Source: Candidatus Iainarchaeum sp. (lineage in GTDB: Archaea > Iainarchaeota > Iainarchaeia > Iainarchaeales > GCA-2688035). From it: a stretch of 64,000 nucleotides of DNA. Shown here in pieces: positions 2,400 to 55,899 of the stretch. The notes beneath the pieces were generated by a model, which was not told where the DNA came from, did not search any database, and saw nothing but the letters and a program-made list of their open reading frames with translations. The stretch lies in assembly GCA_017610175.1 (NCBI GenBank), contig JAFCCO010000002.1, positions 43,319 through 107,318 of the forward strand, in the 5' to 3' direction. Each line of letters starts with the position of its first letter. Positions within the stretch are counted from its first letter, which is position 1. Position numbers and translations under genes: made by a program.

Positions 2400-3671
2400 A
2401 TGAGATTAAGTGACTCCATTAAGTTGTCAGCAAACAATATTCTGCACAGGAAGTTGAGAAGCTGGCTCACATTGCTTGGCATTATAATAGGTGTCGCGGC
2501 AGTGGTCTCAATTATTTCAATAGGGGAAGGCGCGCAAGCAAGTGTGAGTGAAAAGCTTTCAGGCTTTGGGGCAGACGTAATTACTGTCAGCCCGGGCTTC
2601 AGCAAGGCCAGTGCGTTTGCTGGATTTAAGCGGATTGGCAAAAAAATTGGCAACAGCGATGCATCCGGTGATGGGGACGAACCGACTTTGACAAGGATAG
2701 ACTCGATTGTACTTGCAGGAAACCCAAACGTTTTCCAAGTTTCCGAAACAGTTTCTGGCAGGGGCAATCTTGTATTCATTGCGGAAGAAAATTCTGTTGA
2801 CATTCAAGGGATAAATCCGCTTGGTTGGCGTGAGACTTCCAATGCCGAGCTGGCTTCAGGCAGGCATTTGACGCCAAGCGATTCAACTGTGGTTGTAATC
2901 GGGGACAGAATTGCCAACAGCATGTTTAGGCAACCAATTACTTTGGGGCGAAGGGTTGTAATTGAAGAGAAGCCGTTTACTGTGGTTGGGATACTTAAAC
3001 CATCCGGAGGCGGCGGGTTTGGCGGAAACGATTCAACCGTTTACATGTCCCTTGCAAGTGCATGGGATGTAACAGACGTTGAAAAAAACACCTTTTCTCT
3101 GATTGAAGTAAAAGTGGTTGACACCGAATTTATTGAGGAAACAGTTGAAGAGCTCACCCAAGCGTTAATGCTTTCAAGAAAGGTAACTGAAGCAAACCAA
3201 AATTTCAGCATGGTTTCTGCGCAGGCGATTCAGGAGCAGGTCAGTTCTGTGGCCGAAACACTCACCCTGTTTTTGGGGGCAATTGCAGCAGTTTCACTGC
3301 TTGTTGGCGCGGTTGGAGTGGCAAACAGCATGTTTACATCGGTTCTTGAGCAAACAAAGGAGATTGGAATACTGAAAGCCCTTGGTTCAACAAACAACGA
3401 AATTATGTGCATTTTTATGATTGAATCAGGGTTGTTTGGGCTGGCAGGGGGCACAATTGGGGTGCTTTTTGGAACCGCCATATCTATCGGCCTTTCTGAG
3501 CTGGAGATAATTTCAATTCCCATGCTTAAAGGGGGCACAACAACCATTGTAACCCCCCAGCTGGTTATTATTGCAATTGTGCTGTCCACAGTTATTGGAA
3601 TAGTTGCAGGGGCAATGCCTGCACGAGCGGCATCAAAGCTAAAGCCGGTTGAAGCCCTGCGGTATGAATGA
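2400..3671 (+). CDS. ABC transporter permease, FtsX/MacB family
   Basis: N-terminal TM helix, large periplasmic domain, and a C-terminal FtsX-like four-helix bundle (LKALGSTNNEIMCIFMIESGLFGLAGG). Confidence 0.85.
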   Translation: MRLSDSIKLSANNILHRKLRSWLTLLGIIIGVAAVVSIISIGEGAQASVSEKLSGFGADVITVSPGFSKASAFAGFKRIGKKIGNSDASGDGDEPTLTRIDSIVLAGNPNVFQVSETVSGRGNLVFIAEENSVDIQGINPLGWRETSNAELASGRHLTPSDSTVVVIGDRIANSMFRQPITLGRRVVIEEKPFTVVGILKPSGGGGFGGNDSTVYMSLASAWDVTDVEKNTFSLIEVKVVDTEFIEETVEELTQALMLSRKVTEANQNFSMVSAQAIQEQVSSVAETLTLFLGAIAAVSLLVGAVGVANSMFTSVLEQTKEIGILKALGSTNNEIMCIFMIESGLFGLAGGTIGVLFGTAISIGLSELEIISIPMLKGGTTTIVTPQLVIIAIVLSTVIGIVAGAMPARAASKLKPVEALRYE

Positions 3672-3876
3672 CTGTTTGAAGCCAAGCCAGCGCCTGCCGA
3701 TAGCTTTAAATAGATTGCTTGCACCAATTTTATTTGATGACCTCAAAAGGCGATTCACTTTGGCTTCAATAAGGCCTTACCTGATTTAACTAGCCTTTTG
3801 AATGCAAATTCTAACCTAATTCAGCCATGGCTCTGGGCCTGGTTCACGCCGTAGGGCAAAGCATTGGAAAAAAGTT

Positions 3877-3949
3877 GGGGTTATAGCATAACCTGGTAGT
3901 GCAGGCGGCTCCAGACCGTCGGATCAGGGTCCGAATCCCTGTAACCCCA
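3877..3949 (+). tRNA. tRNA-Trp (anticodon CCA), no intron, CCA not encoded
   Basis: Hand-folded cloverleaf: acceptor GGGGTTA/TAACCCC, D-stem GCAT/GTGC, anticodon stem GGCGG/CCGTC with loop CUCCAGA, T-stem CAGGG/CCCTG. The T-loop is TCCGAAT, with C at position 55, which is unusual. A T-rich tract follows. Confidence 0.7.
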
Positions 3950-4033
3950 CTAATTTTTTCTTTTCAAAAAAGAAAAAAATTAACCAAAAGAAAACTAAAA
4001 TGAAAACTGAAAACAGAACCCAGTGAACAAACG

Positions 4034-5632
4034 ATGATTTCAGAAAAGGAACTCGGAAAGTTTGGAAAGGGAACAATTGTTCCAATAGTAAAGGAAATAA
4101 GTAGCGGCCAGCATGCCCTAGACTTCTTTGCAAAGCTTTCAGATTACGGCAGGCAGAAAAACTCAATTCTCCTTGAGTCGGCCGATGTAATGAAGAAGTA
4201 CGGTGAAAAAAGCATCGGTTCAGCAGACCCATGCCTCAAAGTGCAGGGGACGGGGTCCGAATTTGAAATTGCCGCGCTAAATTCGCTTGGGGAAAACTTT
4301 CTTGAATTCATTAAGCCAGGCCTTGGTTTTGTAAAGGACATTGAATTCTCAAAGGACTCAATCAAGGGAACGCTCTCGGTTGCTGCCGGAAACGTAAGCG
4401 AGGAAGAAAGGCTCAGGCTCAAAACACACGCAGACATTCTTCGCGCAATCTCCTTCGCATTCAAGCCAAGCCAGAAGCCGTTTACCCCATACTCCGGCTT
4501 GTTTGGTGCAATCTCCTATGATTTCATTGACCAGTTTGAAAAGCTTCCCGCAAACAGGCAGGACAAGCTAAACGACCCGGATTATGAATTGCTTTTTCTC
4601 GACAACCTTTTCCACGTGGACCACGAAAAGCAAAAGTATTCCTTTGTTGCGAACGCGCTTCTCACAACCGATGATACCGGACCTGTTTATGAAAAATGCC
4701 TGAAGAGAATTGATGCGATGGAGAAAATCCTCTCCAAGGAAATTCCTGAAAGCAAAAAGGTTTCGAAGAAGGTTGAGATTCAAACAGACGTTTCGGACAA
4801 GGAGTACGCTGAAATAGTTGAAAAAATGAAGGAACACATTACTGCAGGGGACGTTTTCCAGATTGTTCCAAGCAGAACATTTTCTACAAAGGTGTCTGCA
4901 GAGCCGCTTGACATTTACTCAAAGCTTCGCGAGCTAAATCCCTCACCCTACATGTTTTATTTCAGGAATCAGTTGGGTATATTGCTTGGAAGCAGCCCTG
5001 AAACATTTCTCAAGGTAGAGGGTGGGAAAGAGAAAACGATTGAAATCAGACCGATTGCGGGAACGCGCAGGCGCGGCATTGTAAACGGAAAAATTGACGA
5101 GAAGCTTGACTTGGAGCTGGAAAAAGAGCTTCGCGCCGATGAAAAGGAGCTTGCAGAGCACACAATGCTTGTTGACCTTGCAAGAAACGACGTTGCGCGC
5201 GTTTCAAAGCCGGGAACAAGGCATGTGGACAAGCTGCATATTGTTGAGAGATACAGCCATGTAATGCACTTGGTGAGCAGTGTGCACGGGACACTCAAGC
5301 CCGAGCTTGACGCTTTGCATGCATACCTTGCCTCAATGAATATGGGAACCCTTACCGGCGCACCAAAGATTAAGGCAATGGAGCTCTTAAGAAAATACGA
5401 AAAGAACAAGCGCGGCTTTTACGGCGGGTCGGTTGGGTACTTTACGCCAAGCGGCGACTTTGACTCCTGCATTGTAATCAGAAGCATGCGCATCAAAAAG
5501 GGTGAAGCATTCATTCGCGCGGGCGCCGGAATTGTTTTTGATTCAGTTCCCAAAAAAGAGGCTGCTGAAACAACCGCAAAGGCACAATCCTGCATTTCAG
5601 CAATTAAGAAGGCACAGGGGGACTTCGAGTGA
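4034..5632 (+). CDS. trpE: Anthranilate synthase component I
   Basis: Chorismate-binding enzyme motifs (LLESAD..., GAGIVFDS); 532 aa; first gene of the trp operon. Confidence 0.95.
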   Translation: MISEKELGKFGKGTIVPIVKEISSGQHALDFFAKLSDYGRQKNSILLESADVMKKYGEKSIGSADPCLKVQGTGSEFEIAALNSLGENFLEFIKPGLGFVKDIEFSKDSIKGTLSVAAGNVSEEERLRLKTHADILRAISFAFKPSQKPFTPYSGLFGAISYDFIDQFEKLPANRQDKLNDPDYELLFLDNLFHVDHEKQKYSFVANALLTTDDTGPVYEKCLKRIDAMEKILSKEIPESKKVSKKVEIQTDVSDKEYAEIVEKMKEHITAGDVFQIVPSRTFSTKVSAEPLDIYSKLRELNPSPYMFYFRNQLGILLGSSPETFLKVEGGKEKTIEIRPIAGTRRRGIVNGKIDEKLDLELEKELRADEKELAEHTMLVDLARNDVARVSKPGTRHVDKLHIVERYSHVMHLVSSVHGTLKPELDALHAYLASMNMGTLTGAPKIKAMELLRKYEKNKRGFYGGSVGYFTPSGDFDSCIVIRSMRIKKGEAFIRAGAGIVFDSVPKKEAAETTAKAQSCISAIKKAQGDFE

Positions 5633-6210
5633 ACGTTTTATTCATTGACAACTTTGATTCATTCACCTACAACCTTGTGGACGAGTTTGCAAAACGCGGC
5701 TGTGAGGTCCGGGTTTACAGGAACGACGCTCCGCTTGAGAAAATTGAGCAGGTTGTTTTGGAATTTAACCCGGCTCTTATAGTGATAAGCCCCGGTCCGT
5801 CAACTCCAAAGGATGCGGGGGTCTCAATTTCCGCAATAAAGGAGTTTGCGGGAAAAGTTCCGATTTTTGGAATCTGCCTGGGGCACCAGTGCATTGTTGA
5901 GGCATTTGAGGGGGAGGTAGGGCAGGCGCCTGAAATAGTGCATGGAAAGCCGTCCCAAATCAAGCACGACGGCAAAACAATCTTCAAAAACATTGAAAAC
6001 CCGTTTCAGGCAGGCCGTTACCACTCTCTGACAGGTTTAAATATTCCTTCGTGCCTTGAAGTTAGTGCAAAGGCAAACGATGTGGTTATGGGCGTAAGGC
6101 ATCGCAAGCAATTCATTGAGGGAGTTCAATTCCACCCGGAAAGCATTCTTACAAGGGAAGGCGGGAAAATTATTGAAAATTTAATTAAATTGTGCGGGAA
6201 CAAAAAATGA
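5629..6210 (+). CDS. trpG: Anthranilate synthase component II (class I glutamine amidotransferase)
   Basis: GATase motifs GICLGHQ and HPES; overlaps the trpE stop by 4 nt. Confidence 0.93.
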   Translation: MNVLFIDNFDSFTYNLVDEFAKRGCEVRVYRNDAPLEKIEQVVLEFNPALIVISPGPSTPKDAGVSISAIKEFAGKVPIFGICLGHQCIVEAFEGEVGQAPEIVHGKPSQIKHDGKTIFKNIENPFQAGRYHSLTGLNIPSCLEVSAKANDVVMGVRHRKQFIEGVQFHPESILTREGGKIIENLIKLCGNKK

Positions 6211-7223
6211 TTGGGCAATTTGTTGAAAAGGCTTCAAAAGGGGAAAACCTTTCAAGGAAAGAGGCAAGGGAGGCATTTGACCTCATAATGGCCGGAAAGG
6301 TTGAAACACCTGAAATTAAGGAACTGCTTATTGCACTGCGCGACAAGGGCGAAACAATTGATGAGATAAGCGGTGCAGCCGAAAGCATGAAAGATGTTGT
6401 TGCAAACGTTTCCCCAAAAACAGACAAGCCATTGCTTGACATTGTTGGAACAGGCGGCGACTGCAAGAGCACAATCAATGTAAGCACAGCGTCAGCCTTT
6501 GTTGCCGCAGGGGCAGGATGCATTGTTGCAAAGCACGGAAACAGGAGTGTTTCCAGCAAATGCGGCTCTGCTGATGTTCTTGAAAAGCTGGGCGTAAAGC
6601 TTGAGTGCGGCAACGAGAAAAACACGCGGATGATTGAAAAGATTGGCATTGCTTTTTTGTTCGCGCCATGCCACCACCCTGCAATGAAATTTGCAATTCC
6701 TGCGCGAAAGGAAATCGGGACAAGGACAATTTTCAACATTTTAGGGCCGCTCACAAATCCAGCAAATGCACAAACTTTCTTGCTCGGGATATTCTCTCTT
6801 GAGCTGGCGGAGAATCTTGCAGGCGTTCTGGCCAATCTAAAAATAGGGCACGCGCTTGTTGTGCACGGCAACGACGGCTTTGACGAGATTTCGGTCAGCG
6901 ATGCGACAACGGTTTTTGAGGTAAAGGGCGGAAAGATTGAACGCTATGAAATTTCACCTGAACAGTTTGGGTTTCAGCGTGCAAACGAGAGGGATATAAA
7001 GGTGTCAAGCATTGAGGAAAATGCAACCGTTCTGAAGGCAATTCTTTCAGGGAAGGAAAAGGACGCAAAGCGGGACATCGTTGTTTTTAATGCGGGTGCG
7101 GCAATCTACGTAAACAATCTTGCTTCAAGCATTGGAGAGGGAATTGAAAAGGCCAGGCAAAGCATTGATTCGGGCTCGGCGCTTAAAAAACTTGAACAGC
7201 TTGTAGAGGAGAGCGGCAAATGA
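6192..7223 (+). CDS. trpD: Anthranilate phosphoribosyltransferase
   Basis: GTGGD motif and the NILGPLTNPA region. Confidence 0.93.
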   Translation: MREQKMIGQFVEKASKGENLSRKEAREAFDLIMAGKVETPEIKELLIALRDKGETIDEISGAAESMKDVVANVSPKTDKPLLDIVGTGGDCKSTINVSTASAFVAAGAGCIVAKHGNRSVSSKCGSADVLEKLGVKLECGNEKNTRMIEKIGIAFLFAPCHHPAMKFAIPARKEIGTRTIFNILGPLTNPANAQTFLLGIFSLELAENLAGVLANLKIGHALVVHGNDGFDEISVSDATTVFEVKGGKIERYEISPEQFGFQRANERDIKVSSIEENATVLKAILSGKEKDAKRDIVVFNAGAAIYVNNLASSIGEGIEKARQSIDSGSALKKLEQLVEESGK

Positions 7224-7996
7224 AGGGATTATTGCGCGACATTGTTGCCGCGAAAAAGATTGAAGTCAAGGCTAAGAGGAAAGAGGTTCCCTTGAACGAG
7301 CTTGAGCCAAGTGTAAAGCCGGCCGAACACGGTTTCAGGCAGGCGCTTGAATCAAAGAAGCATGCAATAAACCTCATTGCCGAACTGAAAAAGGCCTCTC
7401 CCTTGTCGGGCGTTCTTCGTGAGGACTTTGATGTAAAGAAAATCGCGTCAATTTATAACAGGCATGCACAGGCAATTTCGGTTATTACCGATGAAAAGTT
7501 TTTCCAGGGAAAAGCAGAGTACATCAAGCAGGTAAAAGAGGTTTCTTCACTCCCTGTTCTGCGAAAGGACTTTGTGATTGACGAATACCAGCTTTACGAA
7601 AGCCTTGCAATGGGGGCAGATGCGGTTTTGCTTATTGCGTCAATTGTTTCAAAGCAAAAGCTCCAGAAAATGATGCGTCTTGCAAAAGAAATTGGAATTC
7701 AGGCCCTTGTGGAGGTTCACTCCAGCCAGGATTTTGAGCGCGCGTTCTCGCACGACCTTGAAATAATTGGGGTAAACAACCGCGACCTTGAAACAATGAA
7801 AATAAGCCTTAATTCGTTTGAGAGAATTAGGCAGCTCATTCCGGAGGATCGGGTAATTGTTGCGGAGTCAGGCTACTCCACAAAACAGCACATTGACTCA
7901 ATTAAGGGAAAGGCCGATGCTGTTCTGATGGGCTCGGTTTTAATGAAGGCAGAGGATATTGATGCAAAACTTGAGGAGCTTGGTTTCGTTGGTTGA
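7220..7996 (+). CDS. trpC: Indole-3-glycerol phosphate synthase
   Basis: IGPS TIM-barrel motifs (IAELKKASP, LRKDF, IGVNNRDL). Confidence 0.9.
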   Translation: MKGLLRDIVAAKKIEVKAKRKEVPLNELEPSVKPAEHGFRQALESKKHAINLIAELKKASPLSGVLREDFDVKKIASIYNRHAQAISVITDEKFFQGKAEYIKQVKEVSSLPVLRKDFVIDEYQLYESLAMGADAVLLIASIVSKQKLQKMMRLAKEIGIQALVEVHSSQDFERAFSHDLEIIGVNNRDLETMKISLNSFERIRQLIPEDRVIVAESGYSTKQHIDSIKGKADAVLMGSVLMKAEDIDAKLEELGFVG

Positions 7997-8600
7997 GATA
8001 AAATTCTGCGGGTTCACCGATGAGAAAGACGCCCTTCAGGCCTGCTCCCTTGGGATAGACTTTATAGGGTTTAATTTTGTTAAGGAAAGCAAGCGCTTTG
8101 TTTCCCCCGAAAAAGCAAAGGAAATCATTTCCGCACTTCCTGAGCGGGTGAAAAAGGTGGGCGTTTTTGCGGACGAGCCGGTTCAGCGCGTTAACTTCAT
8201 CAAGCGATACTGCGGCCTTGACATGCTTCAGTTCCACGGTTTTGAAACACCTGAGTACTGCTCGCAGTTTAGGAATTATATTAAGGCTTTCAGGGTAAAG
8301 GATGCCGATTCGCTTGAGGCAGTCTCAAAATATGGCACAGAGTACGTTCTTCTGGACACTTTTGTGGAGGACAAGCTTGGCGGGACAGGAAAGAGATTTA
8401 ATTGGGCCATTGCAAAAGAGGTTTTGGATAAAAAGGTTTTTTTAGCTGGTGGTCTTAATTATAATAATGTAGCGCAGGCAATTGAGGAATCAAAACCCTT
8501 TGCGGTTGATGTTGCCTCGGGAATTGAGAGCGCTGCAGGCAGAAAGGACTTGGATTTGATGAGAAAATTTGTTGAGGCGGTGAAGGGCATTGAAGCATAG
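7959..8600 (+). CDS. trpF: Phosphoribosylanthranilate isomerase
   Basis: PRAI fold (KFCGFT..., LAGGL); overlaps the trpC 3' end. Confidence 0.85.
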
Positions 8601-9777
8601 CGGAAAATTTGGCGAGTATGGCGGAATATTTATTCCCGAAACACTCATGCCCGCGCTTGAAGAGCTTGAAACCGCATTTTACGAAAGCAAAAAAGACGGC
8701 GCTTTTAAAAAGGAATTTGACCATCTTCTCAAAACATTTGTGGGCAGGCCAACAGCGCTTACTTTTGCGGAAACACTCAGCAAAAAGCTCGGTTGCAGGG
8801 TTTATTTGAAGCGAGAGGACCTTGCGCACACCGGGGCGCACAAGATTAACAACGCCCTTGGCCAGGCACTTCTTGCAAAGAAAATGGGAAAGAAAAGAAT
8901 TATTGCCGAAACAGGGGCGGGCCAGCATGGCACTGCAACTGCAATTGCCGCAGCAAAGCTTGGTTTTGAGTGTGATGTTTATATGGGCGAAGTTGATATT
9001 GAAAGGCAGAAGCCAAACGTTTTTAGGATGAAGCTTGCGGGGGCGGGCGTTCTGCCTGTTTCAAGCGGAAGCCGCACACTAAAGGATGCGATAAATGAGG
9101 CGCTTAGGGACTGGACTGCTTCATGCGAGGACACATATTACCTGCTTGGCTCCGTTCTCGGACCGCATCCCTATCCTGAGATGGTTGCACATTTTCAAAG
9201 CGTAATCGGGCAGGAGGCAAGAAAGCAGATTCTTGAGGCTGAGGGAAAGCTTCCAAAAACAATTATTGCCTGCGTTGGCGGGGGAAGCAATGCAATAGGA
9301 ATTTTTAAGGAATTTATTCAGGACAAAGATGTTGAATTGATTGGTGTTGAAGCAGGCGGCCTTGGGATTAAGGGTGGAAAGCATGCGGCGCGGTTTGCCG
9401 ACCCAAAGCTTGGGCGGAAGGGTGTGCTGCATGGCACCTTAACCTATGTGCTGCAGGACAAGTTTGGGCAGATTTACAACACACACAGTGTTTCAGCAGG
9501 CCTTGATTACAGCGCGGTTGGCCCTGAACACAGCATGCTTCGCGATATGGGTCGGGCAAAGTATACCTATGCGACAGATTCAGAAGCCCTGGCGGCATTC
9601 AAACTTTTAAGCGAGGTTGAGGGGATTATTCCTGCCCTTGAGTCATCGCATGCGGTGGCGCACTTGTTAAAGTATGCCAAGCACTGCAAAAAGGACGATG
9701 TGGTAATAGTTAACATTAGCGGCCGCGGGGACAAGGACATTTTCCACGTTGCAGACCAGTTGGGTGAGAAGATTTGA
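8590..9777 (+). CDS. trpB: Tryptophan synthase beta chain
   Basis: PLP enzyme motifs ([17 protein letters not shown]). Confidence 0.95.
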
Positions 9778-10595
9778 ACAGATTCGAGCGCATGTCTGCA
9801 AGGCTGAGGCCAAAGGGAGAGGGCGCATTAATGCCTTTTGTGGTTCTTGGCGACCCAAATTATGAGCAGTCGCTTGAGCTAATCAAAACACTTATTGACA
9901 ATGGAGCGGACGCGCTTGAGCTTGGTTTTCCGTTTTCCGACCCTATTGCGGACGGTTCAACCGTGCAGGAAGCGGACCAGAGAGCGCTTGCTTCCGGGAT
10001 GAACACGGACAAGTGCTTTTCTCTCTTAAAGGAAATAAGGGAATACAATTCTGATATTCCAATCGGGCTGCTTGTTTACTACAACCTTGTTTTTCAAAGG
10101 GGTTTGTCCAGCTTTTGCGGGGATGCAAAAAAGGCAGGTGTTGATGCCTTGCTTATAGCGGATATGCCTATTGAGGAGTCAAACGCAATTATGGGTGCGT
10201 CCTGGAAGCACGGGATTTCACAGGTTTTTCTGGTTGCTCCAACAACAGGCGATGCGAGAATAAAGCAGATTGCGTCCCTTTGCTCGGGCTATCTTTACAT
10301 TGTTTCCCGCTTGGGCGTTACGGGAGCAAGGGATTCGCTGCAGGTAAGCACACTTGAACTTGTTCAAAGGGTAAGAAAACACACTCAACTTCCTTTGATG
10401 GTTGGTTTTGGAATAAGCAAACCCATGCACATACATGATGTTATTGCGGCGGGAGCGGACGGCGCAATTGTTGGCTCCGCTTTAATTAAGATTGTTTCAA
10501 AAAATCTTGTTAATCGCCGAAAAATGCTCAAAGACGTTGCCTCATTCATTGCCGAACTCAAGAAGGCAACAGTTTCCAAACCGGGCAAAAACTAG
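9774..10595 (+). CDS. trpA: Tryptophan synthase alpha chain
   Basis: TrpA motifs ([19 protein letters not shown]). Confidence 0.93.
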
Positions 10596-10631: not shown

Positions 10632-10703
10632 GGGCCCTTAGTCTAGTGGTAGGACGCATCCTTCGCAAGGATGAGATCCCGGGTTCAATCCCCGGAGGGT
10701 CCA
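10632..10703 (+). tRNA. tRNA-Ala (anticodon CGC) with the G3:U70 identity pair
   Basis: Acceptor GGGCCCT/AGGGTCC, including the G3-U70 wobble; anticodon loop UUCGCAA; T-loop TTCAATC; followed by TTTTT. Confidence 0.85.
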
Positions 10704-11593: not shown

Positions 11594-12310
11594 TCAGGCT
11601 TCGCCCTCTAATGAGAAATAGATTCTTCTGTTGTTCTTTCCCTTGTTTTTCATTCCCTCAATCTTAATCTTTCCAACTTCATCAGTATTCCTAACGTGGG
11701 TTCCACCATCAGCGGTTATATCAACTCCGCCAATGTCCACAATCCTAAGCACTTCAACAGCCTTTGGAAGCTTGTCCTTTAGCCTAATAATTCCCGGAAT
11801 CTTAAACGCCTCTTCCCTTGGCAAAAACTTCACTTCAATCGGAAGATTTCTTGCAAGCAGTTCATTCGCTTTCTCCACAAATCCGTTAAGCAATTCACGG
11901 TCGAAATTTTCCACACAAAAGTCCATTCTGCTCTTTTCAACATCCAATTGGTTGCCGCTGATTAGCGCACCGGTTTCGCCAAAAATCACGTTGTGCAAAA
12001 TGTGTGCGGCAGTATGCATTCTCATAAGCTTGTAGCGCCTTTTCCAGTCAAGAACACACAAAACATTGTCTCCCTCTTTTAAGCCCTGCTCGCTGACTTC
12101 ATAGCTTACATCTGTTCCAAAATCCTTGCCAAAAAGCACGTTGAATTCATTCCCCTGCAGGATAATTTTTCCAAAATCAGAGGGTTGCCCTCCCTTCTCA
12201 GGATAGAATGCGCTCTTGTCAAGCACAACAAATTTTGAAGCAGTTACCTTTTCAATTCTGGCTCTCCACTCCCTGATGTAGGAGTTTTTCATCCAGAGTT
12301 TTTCAGTCAT
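11594..12310 (-). CDS. alaX: Alanyl-tRNA editing protein AlaX (AlaRS second-additional-domain homolog)
   Basis: HxxxH zinc motif (HTAAHILHNV) and GGTHV motif; 238 aa. Confidence 0.85.
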   Translation of the reverse strand: MTEKLWMKNSYIREWRARIEKVTASKFVVLDKSAFYPEKGGQPSDFGKIILQGNEFNVLFGKDFGTDVSYEVSEQGLKEGDNVLCVLDWKRRYKLMRMHTAAHILHNVIFGETGALISGNQLDVEKSRMDFCVENFDRELLNGFVEKANELLARNLPIEVKFLPREEAFKIPGIIRLKDKLPKAVEVLRIVDIGGVDITADGGTHVRNTDEVGKIKIEGMKNKGKNNRRIYFSLEGEA

Positions 12311-17779: not shown

Positions 17780-19297
17780 TTATTTCATTGCAGTGCTGTT
17801 AAGCATCTTTTCAGTTGCCTTTACTGCGGCCATTACCTGGTCTGAGTCGACCCCGATTGTTTTGAAAACGGTTCCGTTCTTTTTCCAAACAATGGTTGTC
17901 TCAACAAGCGCGTCAGTCTTTCCGCCCGGTGGAATCCTCACCTCATAGTCAGTCAGCTGTGGCAGGCTTAAGCCCATTTTCTTTGCGGCAGGAGTTAATG
18001 CATTCATGAATGCGTCATACCCTCCGTCCCCAACCCCGCTGGTTTCAACCGTGTCTCCGTTTGATTTAAGTGTGAATGAGGCAGTTGGGGTTATTCCCTT
18101 TCCGCTTGTTACCACACAGTTAATTATTTTGATGCGCTGTGTTTCAGGGGTTTGCAGAACGTCCGAAACAATGTAGGGAAGGTCCTCGGGAGTTATTTTT
18201 TCCTTCATGTCCCCGAGCTTTACGATTCTTTCAAGAACCGCTTTTCTTTGCTCTGCAGTCAATTCAATCCCAAGCTTTTTCAGGTTCATTTCAAGCGATG
18301 CCTTTCCCGAAAGCTTTCCCAAAGCGTACTCGCGTTCCCGCCCAAATCTTTTTGGGAGTAATTTGTTTGCGTAAAGGTTTCCTTTCTTGTCCCCGTCTGC
18401 GTGGATTCCCGCTGTTTGCGTGAACGTATTTTCACCCGAAATCGGCTTGTTTTCTGCCAGCCTTTTTCCTGAAAATGTTTCAGCTATCTTGCTTGCCATG
18501 TATATTTTCTCTTCCGCAACCCTTGTTTCAAATTGAGTGTGGTCCTTTATTGCGGCGGCAACCTCGTCAAGCGGTGCATTCCCGCATCTTTCCCCCAGCC
18601 CGTTTAGCGTAACGTGCATGCCTGAGCAGCCGGCCTCTGTTGCCGCAAGTGTGTTTGCCACAGCAAGCCCGTAATCATTGTGTGCGTGGAAGTCAAATTT
18701 CATTTCAGGGAATTCTTTAAGCATTTCCCCCACAAACTGCGCCGTTTTTGTTGGGGAAAAAACCCCCAGCGTGTCAGGGAGAAGAACTCGTTCTATTGGA
18801 AGCTCTGAAAGCAGTTTGGTGAATTCAAGCACGTATTCCTTGCTTTCCTGAATTCCGTTGCTCCAGTCCTCGAGGTAAACATTTACATTAAAGCCCTGCT
18901 TTTTTGCGTACTCAATTGTTTTTTTCGCATCCTCAAAGTGCTGTTCCTTGCTTTTGCCAAGCTGCTGTGTGCAGTGCTTTAAGCTTCCTTTTGCAAGCAG
19001 GTTAATTGTTTTTCCACCCGCCCTTTTAATCCAGTTAACCGATTCCTCAAAGTCCACAAAGCCAAGCACTTCAACCCTTTCAAGAAGCCCTTCTTTTTTT
19101 GCCCAGGCCGTTATTTTTTTAACCGCTTCAAGTTCGCCCTCTGAAACCCTTGCATTTGCAACCTCTATCCTGTCAACTTTCAGCTCGCTTAGGAGCATTT
19201 TTGCAAGCCCAAGCTTTTCCTCGGGTGAGAATGCGACGTTTTGGGTTTGTTCCCCGTCGCGCAGCGTAGTGTCCATTATTTCAACGGTTTTGCTCAT
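17780..19297 (-). CDS. cimA: (R)-citramalate synthase / 2-isopropylmalate synthase family protein
   Basis: DTTLRDGEQ, HAHND...G, and a C-terminal LeuA_dimer-like domain; start taken at MSKTVEIMDTT. Confidence 0.85.
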   Translation of the reverse strand: MSKTVEIMDTTLRDGEQTQNVAFSPEEKLGLAKMLLSELKVDRIEVANARVSEGELEAVKKITAWAKKEGLLERVEVLGFVDFEESVNWIKRAGGKTINLLAKGSLKHCTQQLGKSKEQHFEDAKKTIEYAKKQGFNVNVYLEDWSNGIQESKEYVLEFTKLLSELPIERVLLPDTLGVFSPTKTAQFVGEMLKEFPEMKFDFHAHNDYGLAVANTLAATEAGCSGMHVTLNGLGERCGNAPLDEVAAAIKDHTQFETRVAEEKIYMASKIAETFSGKRLAENKPISGENTFTQTAGIHADGDKKGNLYANKLLPKRFGREREYALGKLSGKASLEMNLKKLGIELTAEQRKAVLERIVKLGDMKEKITPEDLPYIVSDVLQTPETQRIKIINCVVTSGKGITPTASFTLKSNGDTVETSGVGDGGYDAFMNALTPAAKKMGLSLPQLTDYEVRIPPGGKTDALVETTIVWKKNGTVFKTIGVDSDQVMAAVKATEKMLNSTAMK

Positions 19298-19465
19298 GCG
19301 GATGCCCCCTTTGGAAATACTGGTTTGGTGGCTAAACAATTCAAGAAACAGTTATTGCGGAAGAATCCGTAAATCCCTTCTGTTTGCCATAATAATCTTT
19401 TAGTTGCCCTGTTTTTTTAAAGCTTTGCACAGGGGCGTGGTCATTTCCTTTTTAGGTTCGGGGCA

Positions 19466-43143: not shown

Positions 43144-43280
43144 GCCGGCGTGGCGGAGCGGTCAAACGCGGTGGCCTTGAGGCACCCTTTCTTTGAAAGA
43201 AAGCGTGCACGGAAAGAATCCGTGGGTGCAAGTGAGCCATTTTCCGAAAGGAAGCACAGGTTCGAATCCTGTCGCCGGCG
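43144..43280 (+). tRNA. tRNA-Ser (anticodon TGA) interrupted by a roughly 53-nt intron after position 37
   Basis: Class II tRNA fold. Acceptor GCCGGCG/CGCCGGC; D-arm GCG-GAGCGGTCAAA-CGC, near-identical to the neighbouring tRNA-Ser(GGA); anticodon stem GTGGC/GCCAT; anticodon loop CU-UGA-G then an insertion at 43182-43234 whose ends pair GCACCC/GGGTGC; long variable arm TTTCCGAAAGGAAGC; T-arm ACAGG-TTCGAAT-CCTGT. The exact splice junctions and the BHB geometry are not resolved by eye. Confidence 0.65.
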
Positions 43281-43282
43281 AA

Positions 43283-43322
43283 CACCCTTTCTTTTGGGAA
43301 AAGAAAGCGTGTACGGAAAGAA
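43283..43322 (+). repeat. 40-nt imperfect direct copy of the 5' part of the tRNA-Ser intron (43183-43218), located 3 nt after the tRNA
   Basis: CACCCTTTCTTT[GA/TGGGAA]AAGAAAGCGTG[C/T]ACGGAAAGAA; 35 of 36 non-loop positions identical; the internal hairpin CTTTCTTT/AAAGAAAG is preserved in both copies; the offset is exactly 100 nt. Confidence 0.6.
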
Positions 43323-43381: not shown

Positions 43382-43465
43382 GCGGAGGTGGCGGAGCGGT
43401 TAAACGCGCCAGCTTGGAAAGCTGGTTCCTTCACGGGAGCGCGAGTTCGAATCTCGTCCTCCGCG
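43382..43465 (+). tRNA. tRNA-Ser (anticodon GGA), intronless
   Basis: Acceptor GCGGAGG/CCTCCGC; anticodon stem CCAGC/GCTGG with loop UUGGAAA; long variable arm; T-loop TTCGAAT; followed by T9. Confidence 0.85.
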
Positions 43466-43541
43466 CTTTTTTTTTGTTAAAAAATCGTGTTGCATATGGT
43501 TTTTTATAGTTCTTTGAGTATACTTATTTTGGGTGAATTTA

Positions 43542-53216: not shown

Positions 53217-53383
53217 GTAGAATAAGCCCCTAAAAAGTATAAAAAACTTACTTGCCTGCGTTAATTAGTGAATAATTGCGTTTTTTTGGGTTTTTCCCAC
53301 CCCATCCGGGGAAAAGGCAACTCTTTTTAAGGAATCCAGACCATATTTTTTAATAGAAGTTTTGCCGATTCTTTTTTATTATT

Positions 53384-53458
53384 GGATCCGTAGCATAGCC
53401 TGGATAGTGCAGCTGGCTTCTAACCAGCAGGTCGTGGGTTCGAATCCCACCGGATCCA
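53384..53458 (+). tRNA. tRNA-Arg (anticodon TCT)
   Basis: Acceptor GGATCCG/CGGATCC; anticodon stem GCTGG/CCAGC with loop CUUCUAA; T-loop TTCGAAT. Confidence 0.85.
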
Positions 53459-53557
53459 TTTAGCAAACAAAACAGTTAGCAGCTCTTTAAGGTTCGAAAA
53501 TATCGTTTGCAAAGCACGGTGTGCGGAAAGTAAGTATTAAATACAACTATCTTCTTA

Positions 53558-54189: not shown

Positions 54190-55899
54190 ATGGTTTCCCC
54201 AAAACAGAAAATAGCAAAAGCGCTCGAGAGCGCTCTTGAAAAACAGCTTTCGCAGGAAGAAATTCTTTCAATGCTTGAGGTTCCGCCACAGCCTGAAATG
54301 GGAGACTTTGCATTCCCCTGCTTCAAGCTGTCCAAAATCCTGAAAAAGGCTCCGCAGGAAATTTCGGCAGAGCTTTCAACCAAAATCAAGCTCCCGTCCA
54401 TGGTTTCCGAGGCAAAAATAGCAGGGCCATACCTCAACTTTTTTGTGAAAAAGGATTGGGCTGCAAAGCAGGCAATTTCAGCAGTGCTCAAGCAAGGGGA
54501 CCTGTACGGTTTTGGAAAGGCCGGCAGGGGGAAAAAGGTAATGATTGAATACTCTGCCCCAAACACAAACAAGCCGCTGCACGTCGGGCACTTGAGGAAC
54601 GACTGCATTGGCATGTCCATTGGAAACATCCTTGAGGCAACAGGGCACAAGGTAACGCGTGCAAACCTTGTGAATGACAGGGGGATTCATATCTGCAAAA
54701 GCATGCTTGCATATAAAAAATGGGGTAAGGGCAAGGAGCCAAACAAGAAGTCAGACCACTTTGTGGGGGACTACTATGTTCTGTTCAACCAGAAGGTAAA
54801 GGAAGACCCTTCGCTTGAGGAAGAGGCCCGCTTTTTGCTGAAGAAGTGGGAGAACAAGGACAAGGAAACGCTTGCGCTGTGGAAAAAAATGAACGCATGG
54901 GCCTTCAAGGGATTCAAAGAGACGTACAAATCGTTTGGAACAAGGTTTGATGTTTGGCTGAAAGAGTCTGAATTCTTTGACAAGGCAAAGCCGATTATTG
55001 AGGATGGATTGGAGAAAGGGGTTTTCTTTGAGGACGACAACGGGGCAATCGTTGCAGGGCTCGAACACCACAACATCCCAAACAAGGTTGTTCTTCGCTC
55101 GGACGGCACATCAATTTACATCACAAACGATTTGGCTCTTACAAAACACAAGTTTGAACACTTTAAGCTTGACCAGGCAATTTGGGTTGTTGCAAGCGAG
55201 CAAAACCTTTACTTCCAGCAGCTCTTCAAAATCTTTGAACTGCTTGGATTCGGGTGGGCAGGCTCCTGTAAGCACAGAAGCTATGGAATGGTTTACCTTC
55301 CGGAAGGGAAGATGAAGTCAAGGGAGGGAACGGTTGTTGACGCGGACAATTTGTTTGAGGACATGTCAGCTCTTGCAGCCAAAGAAGTGAAGAAGCGCTA
55401 TCCAAAACTTTCAAAGGCAGAGCTTGAAAAGAGGGCAAAGGCAATCGCGCTTGCGGCAATAAAATTCTACATGCTAAAGGTTGACGAGGCAAGGGATTTG
55501 CAGTTCAATCCAAAGGAAAGCCTTTCATTCGAGGGCGAAACAGGGCCTTACATCCAGTACACTTTTGCGCGGGCAAAAAGTATTCTGCGCAAGGCAAAGA
55601 AGCCAAAGAAGGTTGATTATTCAAAGCTTGAAACAGATTTGGAAAAGCAGATTGTAATGCTTTTATACAAGTTCCCGCAGACCGTTGAGAAGGCAGCACT
55701 TTCCCTGCAGCCACATCTTGTTTCACAGCATTTGATTGAGCTTGCGACCTCATTCAATTCGTTCTACCACTCAAGCCGCGTGCTGAACGCGGAGTCAGAA
55801 GAGCTTGCAAACGCAAGGCTTGCCCTTGTTGAGGCGGTTGCACAGGTAGTGAAGAATGGACTTAATCTGCTGAACATTAAGCCGATTGAAAAGATGTAA
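54190..55899 (+). CDS. argS: Arginyl-tRNA synthetase
   Basis: HVGHLRN (HIGH-type) motif, and a C-terminal DALR anticodon-binding domain ending ...PIEKM. Confidence 0.95.
   Translation: MVSPKQKIAKALESALEKQLSQEEILSMLEVPPQPEMGDFAFPCFKLSKILKKAPQEISAELSTKIKLPSMVSEAKIAGPYLNFFVKKDWAAKQAISAVLKQGDLYGFGKAGRGKKVMIEYSAPNTNKPLHVGHLRNDCIGMSIGNILEATGHKVTRANLVNDRGIHICKSMLAYKKWGKGKEPNKKSDHFVGDYYVLFNQKVKEDPSLEEEARFLLKKWENKDKETLALWKKMNAWAFKGFKETYKSFGTRFDVWLKESEFFDKAKPIIEDGLEKGVFFEDDNGAIVAGLEHHNIPNKVVLRSDGTSIYITNDLALTKHKFEHFKLDQAIWVVASEQNLYFQQLFKIFELLGFGWAGSCKHRSYGMVYLPEGKMKSREGTVVDADNLFEDMSALAAKEVKKRYPKLSKAELEKRAKAIALAAIKFYMLKVDEARDLQFNPKESLSFEGETGPYIQYTFARAKSILRKAKKPKKVDYSKLETDLEKQIVMLLYKFPQTVEKAALSLQPHLVSQHLIELATSFNSFYHSSRVLNAESEELANARLALVEAVAQVVKNGLNLLNIKPIEKM

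Follow-up and report, generated by a model that had tools for sequence, protein, structure and literature searches.

In a stretch of 64,000 nucleotides (nt) from the archaeon Candidatus Iainarchaeum sp. (contig JAFCCO010000002.1; hereafter the window), a gene for tRNA-Trp with the anticodon CCA lies next to the genes for tryptophan synthesis. We analyzed this tRNA gene, the trp operon that follows it, and the DNA upstream of both. ARAGORN and Rfam (57.9 bits) both called tRNA-Trp(CCA) on the + strand, from 3877 to 3949 or 3950. The tRNA is intron-free and of the archaeal type, with a G1-C72 pair, A73, and the T-loop UCCGAAU. The seven open reading frames (ORFs) 3' of it, all on the + strand, were assigned using NCBIfam to trpE (4034-5632), trpG (5629-6210), trpD (6192-7223), trpC (7220-7996), trpF (7959-8600), trpB (8590-9777), and trpA (9774-10595). 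The stop and start codons of the trp genes overlap across 4034-10595, and the gene order is of the bacterial type. The nearest non-archaeal TrpE proteins were found in Planctomycetota, with about 50% identity to TrpE of the window. ARAGORN, Rfam, and NCBIfam thus agree with an earlier sequence-only reading of this DNA, according to which a tRNA-Trp(CCA) gene stands just upstream of, and co-oriented with, a complete trpEGDCFBA operon.

An RNase P RNA and the 3' end of a 23S rRNA, both archaeal, are also encoded in the window, as is a tRNA with an intron. The best-matching TrpE proteins were labelled Diapherotrites, Nanoarchaeota, Woesearchaeota, or 'archaeon GW2011_AR10'. The host is a DPANN archaeon of the Diapherotrites/Iainarchaeota kind, and therefore the logic of bacterial promoters and terminators is not applicable to the spacer between the tRNA gene and trpE. 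Its genome is rich in metabolic genes, among them those for purine synthesis, glycine cleavage, and threonine synthase, along with several aminoacyl-tRNA synthetases.

The conservation of the adjacency was analyzed in relatives, whose loci are designated here by L-numbers; TrpE identities were measured against TrpE of the window. Scans of genomes and metagenomes with TrpE returned mostly bacterial or distant sequences and none of the close relatives, which were fetched by exact-protein look-up. In about 40 loci from the TrpE scans (47-61% identity), no tRNA was found within 2.5 kb, with the exception of L002. A tRNA-Trp gene was present upstream of trpE in 11 lineages, namely the window, L174, L161/L162, L164, L165/L166, L167, L168, L115, L002, L175, and L172/L173. 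The spacer between the tRNA and trpE is 69 nt in L174 (TrpE 77%), 61 nt in L161/L162 (74%), 64 nt in L164 (67%), 70 nt in L165/L166 (67%), 80 nt in L167 (67%; measured to the conserved MDFLKK start), 47 nt in L168 (66%), and 164 nt in L002 (57%), and it shrinks to 26 nt in L175 (61%) and 21 nt in L172/L173 (62%; AR10-cluster protein). In L115 (59%), the tRNA-Trp at 2209-2345 was called by Rfam only and has a 64-nt intron after the anticodon loop. The adjacency is thus kept at TrpE identities of 57-77%, and hence is not unique to this genome. Neighbour joining on TrpE placed the tRNA-bearing lineages in one clade, clade I, and a further set of DPANN lineages (L018, L169, L003, L081, L082, and L001) in another clade, which has no tRNA at trpE, as checked using Rfam; the Planctomycetota are the bacterial sister group in the tree. 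The genes upstream of the unit vary by lineage (ABC permease, GT15 glycosyltransferase, VIT1, AbiEii, CysRS, or DAHP synthase), which argues that the link between the tRNA and trpE has outlived repeated rearrangement.

Some features of the relatives' loci were noted in passing. The intron of the L115 tRNA-Trp folds into two hairpins and has no C/D boxes, and this tRNA was missed by ARAGORN in bacterial mode. Genes are inserted within the trp operons of several relatives, among them a HAD hydrolase between trpG and trpD, ORFs of unknown function, and a ribulose-phosphate epimerase together with an acetyltransferase. The insertions lie at 3096-3788 in L161, 7193-7801 in L164, 7997-9232 in L169, and 5198-5701 in L175; the operon of the window has none.

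The sequence-only reading had pointed to a T-loop TCCGAAT with C at position 55 in the tRNA-Trp, and this was read at 3928-3934 and seen in an alignment of 10 tRNA-Trp genes. Compensatory changes were present in every stem of this alignment, and G1 and A73, which we take to mark the archaeal type of tRNA-Trp, occurred throughout. C55 was found in the window and in L164 only; the other 8 of the 10 genes have U55, as do all other tRNAs of the window. Its recurrence in L164 indicates an unusual but genuine lineage variant rather than a sequencing error. With C at this position, pseudouridine 55 cannot form. Among the 10 aligned genes, C55 had no visible link to the operon arrangement.

The DNA upstream of the tRNA-Trp contains a perfect canonical archaeal TATA box, TTTAAATA, at 3705-3712 (+), 172 nt before the tRNA. 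It is followed by a small upstream ORF (uORF) at 3737-3772 (+). A TATA box with no more than 1 mismatch is present in 14 of 14 lineages and begins 32-44 nt ahead of the ATG of this leader ORF. The TATA-to-ATG spacing of genuine genes of the window (ArgRS, CysRS, and others) is 28-39 nt, and this likeness points to leaderless or near-leaderless translation of the uORF. For the tRNA-Trp itself, no TATA-like element was found 15-60 nt upstream, where even the best 8-mer differs from a TATA box at 4 positions; each of the other five tRNAs of the window is preceded by a TATA-like element with 1-2 mismatches that begins 26-36 nt ahead of it. No perfect TATA box was found between the uORF stop and trpE in any clade I lineage.

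The uORF of the window reads ATG ACC TCA AAA GGC GAT TCA CTT TGG CTT CAA TAA and would encode MTSKGDSLWLQ, a putative trp leader peptide with its Trp codon TGG at 3761-3763. A uORF of 8-17 codons with the motif D-x-L-W is kept in 14 lineages, and its Trp codon is invariant. The peptides are MQGDSLWLQ in L161, MQGDRLWLQ in L164 and L165, MQGDSLWLR in L167, MQGDSVWL in L168, MNSGDLLWLH in L175, MQRDLLWLPPRAF in L115, MARRDLLWSRFGFE in L002, and MGSDSLWLSKSCFL in L013; the uORF of L172 starts with GTG and encodes NSECLWNAQN. In the clade without the tRNA, the peptides are MKSDCLWRG (L169), MTSDCPWHR (L018), and MPMDWKHFVQNL (L001), and the uORF sits 178-192 nt before trpE. In L013, the uORF abuts trpE with no tRNA between them. 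The presence of the uORF in L169, L018, L001, and L013, where the tRNA is missing, shows that the uORF is tied to the operon and not to the tRNA. The sequence-only reading had held that there is no classic leader peptide, and this did not stand. Its reasoning on a sigma-70 promoter and a leader peptide in the spacer concerned the wrong stretch, since the host is archaeal and the conserved ORF with the Trp codon lies upstream of the tRNA.

The ancestral ATG of the uORF was lost in the window and in L175, and in both an in-frame ATG occurs 1-2 codons further upstream; the TATA-to-ATG distance shrinks accordingly. The stop codon is always in frame but differs in type (TAA or TGA) and position. 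When both strands of about 192 kb of DPANN DNA were scanned for the motif, nothing was recovered beyond the trp leaders, the cimA leaders described below, and one likely false match. From this coding signature, we consider it rather likely that the uORF is translated and regulatory. The contig of L013 (JAFCBY010000130.1) is labelled Candidatus Falkowbacteria, a bacterial candidate phylum, yet it carries a TATA box, leader uORF, and TrpE of the DPANN type; it is probably mis-binned.

A sister element was found on the - strand of the window (19352-19421), where a TATA box at 19414-19421 and a uORF at 19390-19352, encoding MANRRDLRILPQ followed by a stop codon, are set 31 nt apart. This uORF lies 54 nt upstream of a CimA-like gene (17780-19297, -), the product of which matched (R)-citramalate synthase CimA (720 bits) better than isopropylmalate synthase (341 bits) in NCBIfam. 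Citramalate synthase catalyzes the first step of the pyruvate route to isoleucine. The cimA uORF (M..RRDxRIL) is kept in L176 at 1383-1449 (MTARRDGRILE, then a stop) and in L177 at 1357-1426 (MTQRRDVRILPQ, then a stop). Across the three lineages, the Leu (CTT/CTC/CTG), Pro (CCG/CCA), and Gln (CAA/CAG) codons changed synonymously and the peptide was conserved. When the peptides were aligned on Asp, the Ile of the cimA peptide occupied the position of Trp in the trp peptide. The sequence AGAAGGGATTTAC occurs both in the L002 trp leader and in the cimA leader. The sister trp operons of Planctomycetota have leader peptides with WWW, such as MRQIDRYNAINWWWPAG, about 145 nt before trpE. Unannotated leaders ending in WWWP(A/V)G were seen in L004, L005, L006, L008, L009, L011, and L016; L005 has an intrinsic terminator after the leader peptide, and L016 has a sigma-70-like promoter with a -10 hexamer that ends 4 nt short of the leader ATG.

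The spacer between tRNA-Trp and trpE (3950-4033) is 83-84 nt long and reads TAATTTTTTCTTTT-CA-AAAAGAAAAAAATTA, followed by an A-rich stretch. The sequence-only reading had described a T-rich tract followed by an A-rich stretch, and these proved to be the two arms of one hairpin (3951-3982, +; z = -2.6) directly 3' of the tRNA, with a U-rich 5' arm and an A-rich 3' arm. The 5' arm contains T6 (3954-3959) and then CT4 (to 3964), which resembles an archaeal oligo-T termination signal. A hairpin was found at the same site in 9 lineages, starting 1-4 nt past the discriminator base, with z from -1.7 to -6.4. In these lineages the 5' arm is pyrimidine-rich and the 3' arm purine-rich, and the sequences diverge while complementarity is kept. 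L168 and L174 have G.U pairs, which speak for a + strand hairpin at the RNA level. The arms in L161 are GC-rich, and its spacer lacks both an oligo-T tract and a TATA box; the short spacers of L172 and L175 have no hairpin and no oligo-T tract. A similar T/A hairpin follows the intron-containing tRNA of the window, probably tRNA-Ser(TGA), at 43281-43312, which makes the hairpin a general feature of tRNA flanks and not one specific to trp.

The observation of the sequence-only reading that the spacer has no obvious independent promoter was borne out, as no TATA box with at most 1 mismatch was found there, nor between the tRNA and trpE in any clade I lineage. A scan of the spacer for bacterial sigma-70 promoters and intrinsic terminators found nothing, which is not a relevant test in an archaeon. 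The motif TTAAC-N-AAAAGAAAA-YTAG-TTTCA after the hairpin was rejected as a trpE promoter: its distance to the ATG varies, it is too close to the ATG in L164, it is missing in L161, L168, L172, and L175, and it recurs after the tRNA at 43313. In L161 and L168, just 17-22 nt lie between the hairpin and the trpE ATG, with no TATA box within them. The 17-26 nt that separate the tRNA or the hairpin from the ATG in L161, L168, L172, and L175 are too few to accommodate a TATA box about 25 nt before a transcription start. A Shine-Dalgarno-like sequence, AGUGAAC, lies at 4022-4028 (+), 6-12 nt before the trpE ATG, and sequences of the type (A/G)G(Y/G)GA(U/A) occupy the corresponding position in every lineage (GGUGAA, AGUGAU, AGGCGA, GGAGGG), which implies that trpE needs a 5' untranslated region (UTR). 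The mini-ORF MKTENRTQ noted earlier exists at 4001-4027 and is not conserved in relatives.

The RNA structure of the leader between the TATA box and the tRNA was also analyzed. The 5' part of the uORF (3743-3751, UCAAAAGGC) can pair with 3793-3801 (GCCUUUUGA) in a predicted helix, P1 (3743-3801, +), the 3' partner of which lies about 21-24 nt past the uORF stop. The pair UCAAAAGGC/GCCUUUUGA of the window compares with AUGCAAGGC/GCCUUGCR in five relatives, which amounts to three double-sided changes. For P1, 90.5% of cells were paired vs at most 52% with slid partners, and 11 of 500 shuffles equalled this value. Covariation and pairing frequency give the predicted P1 moderate support. Within P1, the Trp-codon region UGGCU pairs with a segment of the AGCCA/AGCUA type in an inner helix, P2. 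Past the uORF, every clade I lineage but the window has runs of at least 5 T. No bacterial-type hairpin-plus-U terminator was found, and no set of alternative helices was established.

A second conserved element, Module B (3833-3862, +), lies just upstream of the tRNA and consists of the conserved sequence CUGGGCCUGG followed by a hairpin, GCC-GUAG-GGC. It aligned without gaps in 7 lineages, its stem covaries (GCC/GGC, GGGC/GCCC, GCUC/GAGC), and its loop is GUAG, GUAA, or GUAU. Module B is missing in L013, where the tRNA is also missing, and is possibly part of the 5' leader of the pre-tRNA. A pairing of Module B with the anticodon arm of tRNA-Trp was rejected, as it came to just a 6-7-nt match in some lineages, with no covariation. 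Module B was also rejected as a second small ORF, since a stop codon interrupts the frame in L164 and a start codon is not conserved; the covarying hairpin explains its conservation better. In L172, the stretch between the uORF and the tRNA has grown to about 300 nt (2625-2905) with four hairpins, each with GUAAAC(G/U)G, and this may be an expanded Module B.

The layout, its conservation, the apparent single promoter, and the coding signature of the uORF emerge from sequence comparison. On balance, they lead us to favour an arrangement in which the tRNA-Trp lies inside the 5' leader of the trp operon, in a unit that would run from the promoter through a sensor uORF, the tRNA-Trp, and the hairpin to the trp genes. 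The promoter and the leader ORF upstream of the tRNA place the tRNA within the unit and not at its edge. The sequence-only reading had raised co-transcription or tRNA-linked regulation. Of these, co-transcription of tRNA-Trp with the trp operon in this clade appears quite probable, in view of the conserved adjacency, the spacers of 21 and 26 nt, and the lack of a TATA box in the spacer or proximal to the tRNA. Any regulation is likelier to be based on the uORF and the ribosome than on the tRNA molecule itself, and neither a T-box nor another known RNA element was found.

In the mechanism that we propose, the TATA box at 3705 would start a single transcript with a near-zero 5' UTR that opens with the 11-codon uORF and runs on via the tRNA-Trp and the hairpin into trpEGDCFBA. 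RNase P and RNase Z would excise the tRNA-Trp, leaving a trp mRNA with a 5' hairpin and its own Shine-Dalgarno-like sequence, and the hairpin may protect the monophosphorylated 5' end of this mRNA. Through the ribosome that translates it, the uORF would sense charged tRNA-Trp. At low levels of Trp-tRNA-Trp, this ribosome would stall at UGG and mask the 5' strand of P1 and the U-rich stretch past the stop, and the stalled ribosome would favour read-through of the oligo-T tracts, at which termination may be intrinsic or factor-assisted. When Trp-tRNA-Trp is plentiful, the ribosome would depart, P1 would form, and more transcripts would end early. With the tRNA gene inside the controlled unit, low charged tRNA-Trp would raise both tRNA-Trp and tryptophan synthesis, and the unit would be a homeostat. 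The window has its sole strong T tract past the tRNA, and T6CT4 there would probably end most transcripts, giving a high ratio of tRNA to mRNA; read-through past T6CT4 is probably partial. This specific attenuation scheme is speculative and, as a whole, doubtful.

Several observations weigh against the tRNA lying in a leader that is controlled by the uORF. All covariation in P1 comes from one lineage, the window. The whole leader folds no better than shuffled sequences (z = -0.18), and an unconstrained search for leader helices was not significant against shuffles; these two results cut the structural claims down to P1. The window has no run of at least 5 T between the uORF and the tRNA, and each DPANN uORF has a single Trp codon and no tandem run. 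A TATA-like element with 1 mismatch, TTTAACTA, lies at 3785, 92 nt before the tRNA-Trp, and on its sequence could drive the tRNA-Trp independently of the uORF. TTTAACTA occurs between the uORF stop and the tRNA in three lineages (the window, L164, and L167) and is degenerate in L161 and L165; L172 has TTTAAATT as a 1-mismatch TATA-like 8-mer in the same interval. In L169 and L018, which lack the tRNA, a perfect TATA box lies between the uORF and trpE, which weakens a simple attenuation model there. The Asp and Leu codons of the uORF (GAT and CTT), together with TGG, are invariant even at synonymous sites, so that an RNA or DNA motif would fit too. Finally, T6CT4 is a plausible terminator, and a TATA-like 8-mer with 2 mismatches, TTTCAAAA, lies at 3962 in the hairpin loop, so that trpE may be transcribed separately in this genome.

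T6CT4, directly 3' of the tRNA-Trp, and TTTCAAAA would both suit an explanation in which the tRNA and the operon are two independent units that are neighbours by descent. The leader/tRNA transcript would then end at T6CT4, a weak, non-canonical promoter within the A-rich arm would drive trpE, and the adjacency would have no regulatory meaning. The T/A hairpin at 43281-43312, after a tRNA unconnected with trp, is also in keeping with this. But the spacers of L172 and L175 are too short to accommodate a promoter, that of L161 has no oligo-T tract or TATA box, and TTTCAAAA is not conserved among relatives. The motif after the hairpin offers no substitute, as it stands at varying distances from the ATG and in L164 too close to it for a promoter. 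The linkage has, moreover, persisted through repeated rearrangement of the upstream flank. Independent units are possible for the window genome but not for L172, L175, or L161, and we regard this explanation as unlikely.

The invariance of GAT, CTT, and TGG bears on a further explanation, in which the uORF is not translated and is instead a non-coding RNA motif or the operator of a DNA-binding regulator just past the TATA box, with an incidental reading frame. Archaeal repressors, TrpY among them, usually have their binding sites at the TATA box and the transcription start site or downstream of these, and the sharing of AGAAGGGATTTAC between the L002 trp leader and the cimA leader would also be expected of such a motif. 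An incidental frame does not explain why lost in-frame starts were re-created in the window and L175, or why the stop is always in frame despite its varying type and position. The cimA uORF kept its peptide through three consecutive synonymous changes, the TATA-to-ATG spacing equals that of real genes, and the variable 'x' codon changes at first and second positions. An untranslated motif is thus improbable, somewhat more so than independent units.

tRNA genes are common integration sites, and the bacterial-type TrpE and gene order, with nearest relatives in Planctomycetota, together with tRNAs on both sides of the operon (Trp upstream and Ala 36 nt downstream), could suggest a leftover of horizontal transfer in which a bacterial-type trp operon integrated next to a tRNA gene that was tRNA-Trp by chance, but we consider this very unlikely, given that the window has no second copy of the tRNA-Trp 3' end (at most 3 mismatches), no att-type direct repeats flank the operon, no integrase-like family was found in the roughly 40 window ORFs scanned with Pfam or NCBIfam (smaller ORFs lay outside the scan), the promoter and leader ORF of the operon lie upstream of the tRNA so that the tRNA is not at the edge, the clade without the tRNA has the uORF and the operon alone, implying that the tRNA entered an existing leader, and the chance that the cognate tRNA among roughly 45 would lie there is presumably low.

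The arrangement that we favour, a tRNA-Trp within a uORF-controlled trp leader, was compared with known systems. By analogy, the unit would combine the workings of a bacterial trpL attenuator with those of a tufB-type tRNA-mRNA operon, and it is not a strict member of the trpL family. As in the trpL attenuator of E. coli, the promoter and trpE are separated by a short ORF with a Trp codon, the first part of this ORF can pair downstream, U/T-rich tracts follow, and the expected logic is that a stall at the Trp codon increases read-through. It differs in having one Trp codon in place of a run (the sister bacteria of the Planctomycetota have WWW), in its archaeal TATA promoter and predicted leaderless initiation, in the lack of a bacterial-type hairpin-plus-U terminator, and in the conserved D-x-L-W peptide scaffold and the tRNA gene between the leader and trpE. 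In the E. coli tRNA-mRNA operon thrU-tyrU-glyT-thrT-tufB, there is no promoter between the tRNAs and tufB, and the tRNAs are released by processing. The trp unit resembles it in that a tRNA lies upstream of a co-oriented protein gene with no promoter between them; unlike in the tufB operon, the tRNA is cognate to the amino acid of the operon and downstream of the putative sensor uORF, and the host is archaeal.

Leaderless polycysteine uORF attenuators have been described in mycobacteria (bioRxiv 10.1101/834739). The trp unit has in common with them a short leaderless ORF as first cistron of an amino-acid-related operon, the cognate codons of which are proposed to sense supply. The mycobacterial uORFs are bacterial, have runs of the cognate codon, and lack the embedded tRNA and the common peptide scaffold of the DPANN unit. 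They are the nearest mechanistic analogue.

T-box riboswitches sense uncharged tRNA and control trp genes in Firmicutes, and the trp unit would resemble them in tying the charging of tRNA-Trp to trp gene expression. No T-box was found with Rfam in 3660-4060 or elsewhere in the window at gathering or permissive thresholds. Unlike in a T-box system, the spacer has no TGG or UGGN element, and the tRNA is encoded in cis here and bound in trans there. Box C/D guide RNAs are present in the pre-tRNA-Trp intron of Haloferax and other archaea, and the trp unit is similar in that an extra conserved RNA segment would be co-transcribed with tRNA-Trp. The block between the TATA box and the tRNA has UGAUGA and one CUGA only, with no C'/D' boxes, and the stretch before CUGA is not conserved, as opposed to what a box C/D small RNA (sRNA) has. 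Its putative C/D guide regions are not complementary to tRNA-Trp, and the Rfam C/D match was not significant (E = 5.6). The block was rejected as a box C/D or H/ACA sRNA, K-turn, or T-box-like element, as it lacks the boxes, its putative guides are not conserved, and its UGAUGA (3736-3741) overlaps the uORF ATG (3737-3739) and is not a C box.

Ribosome-mediated leader-peptide attenuation is a textbook bacterial mechanism, and, to our knowledge, the control of amino-acid operons in archaea is largely unknown, apart from a few repressors. In full-text literature searches, neither archaeal leader-peptide attenuation nor such a link between a tRNA and an operon came up, and a search on Diapherotrites and tryptophan gave nothing on it either. 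Ribosome profiling of Haloferax reported uORFs and no such mechanism (PMC7261190).

Other tRNA genes of the window were also observed beside functionally related genes or in pairs. A tRNA-Ala(CGC) gene (10632-10703, +) lies 36 nt past the trpA stop and has its own TATA-like element, TTTTTAAA, starting 35 nt upstream; given this element, it is probably a separate unit. It is about 900 nt from a gene for an AlaXM-type alanyl-tRNA editing protein (11594-12310, -), which could be chance. A tRNA-Arg(TCT) gene (53383-53459, +) lies about 730 nt upstream of the arginyl-tRNA synthetase gene on the same strand (54190-55899, +), and this could be chance as well. The intron-containing tRNA, probably Ser(TGA), at 43144-43280 (+) was matched by Rfam and missed by ARAGORN; its intron and 3' flank have CCCTTTCTTT..AAAGAAAGCGTG.ACGGAAAGAA in common, and a tRNA-Ser(GGA) gene (43382-43466, +) follows 101 nt after it.

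Taken together, the trp and cimA leaders lead us to suggest, tentatively and with somewhat less than even confidence, that DPANN archaea of the Iainarchaeota type have a family of leaderless leader peptides with the scaffold M-x(2-4)-D-x-x-[X]-L, where X is the amino acid of the pathway, that these would act as ribosome-mediated attenuators, and that the cognate tRNA was drawn into the trp leader. For annotation, these loci carry a warning, since the intron-bearing tRNA-Trp of L115 was missed and spurious ORFs were called across the tRNA-Trp of L172. A cognate tRNA in a biosynthetic leader would make sense if the charged-tRNA pool, and not the free amino acid, is what is controlled, and the loci show how a bacterial-type operon may have adopted archaeal promoters and leaderless translation. 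They also offer a testable hypothesis, in which archaeal transcription-translation coupling would serve amino-acid sensing through a common scaffold with an exchangeable sensing codon. If true, this leader-peptide family would be the first ribosome-mediated attenuation system in Archaea.

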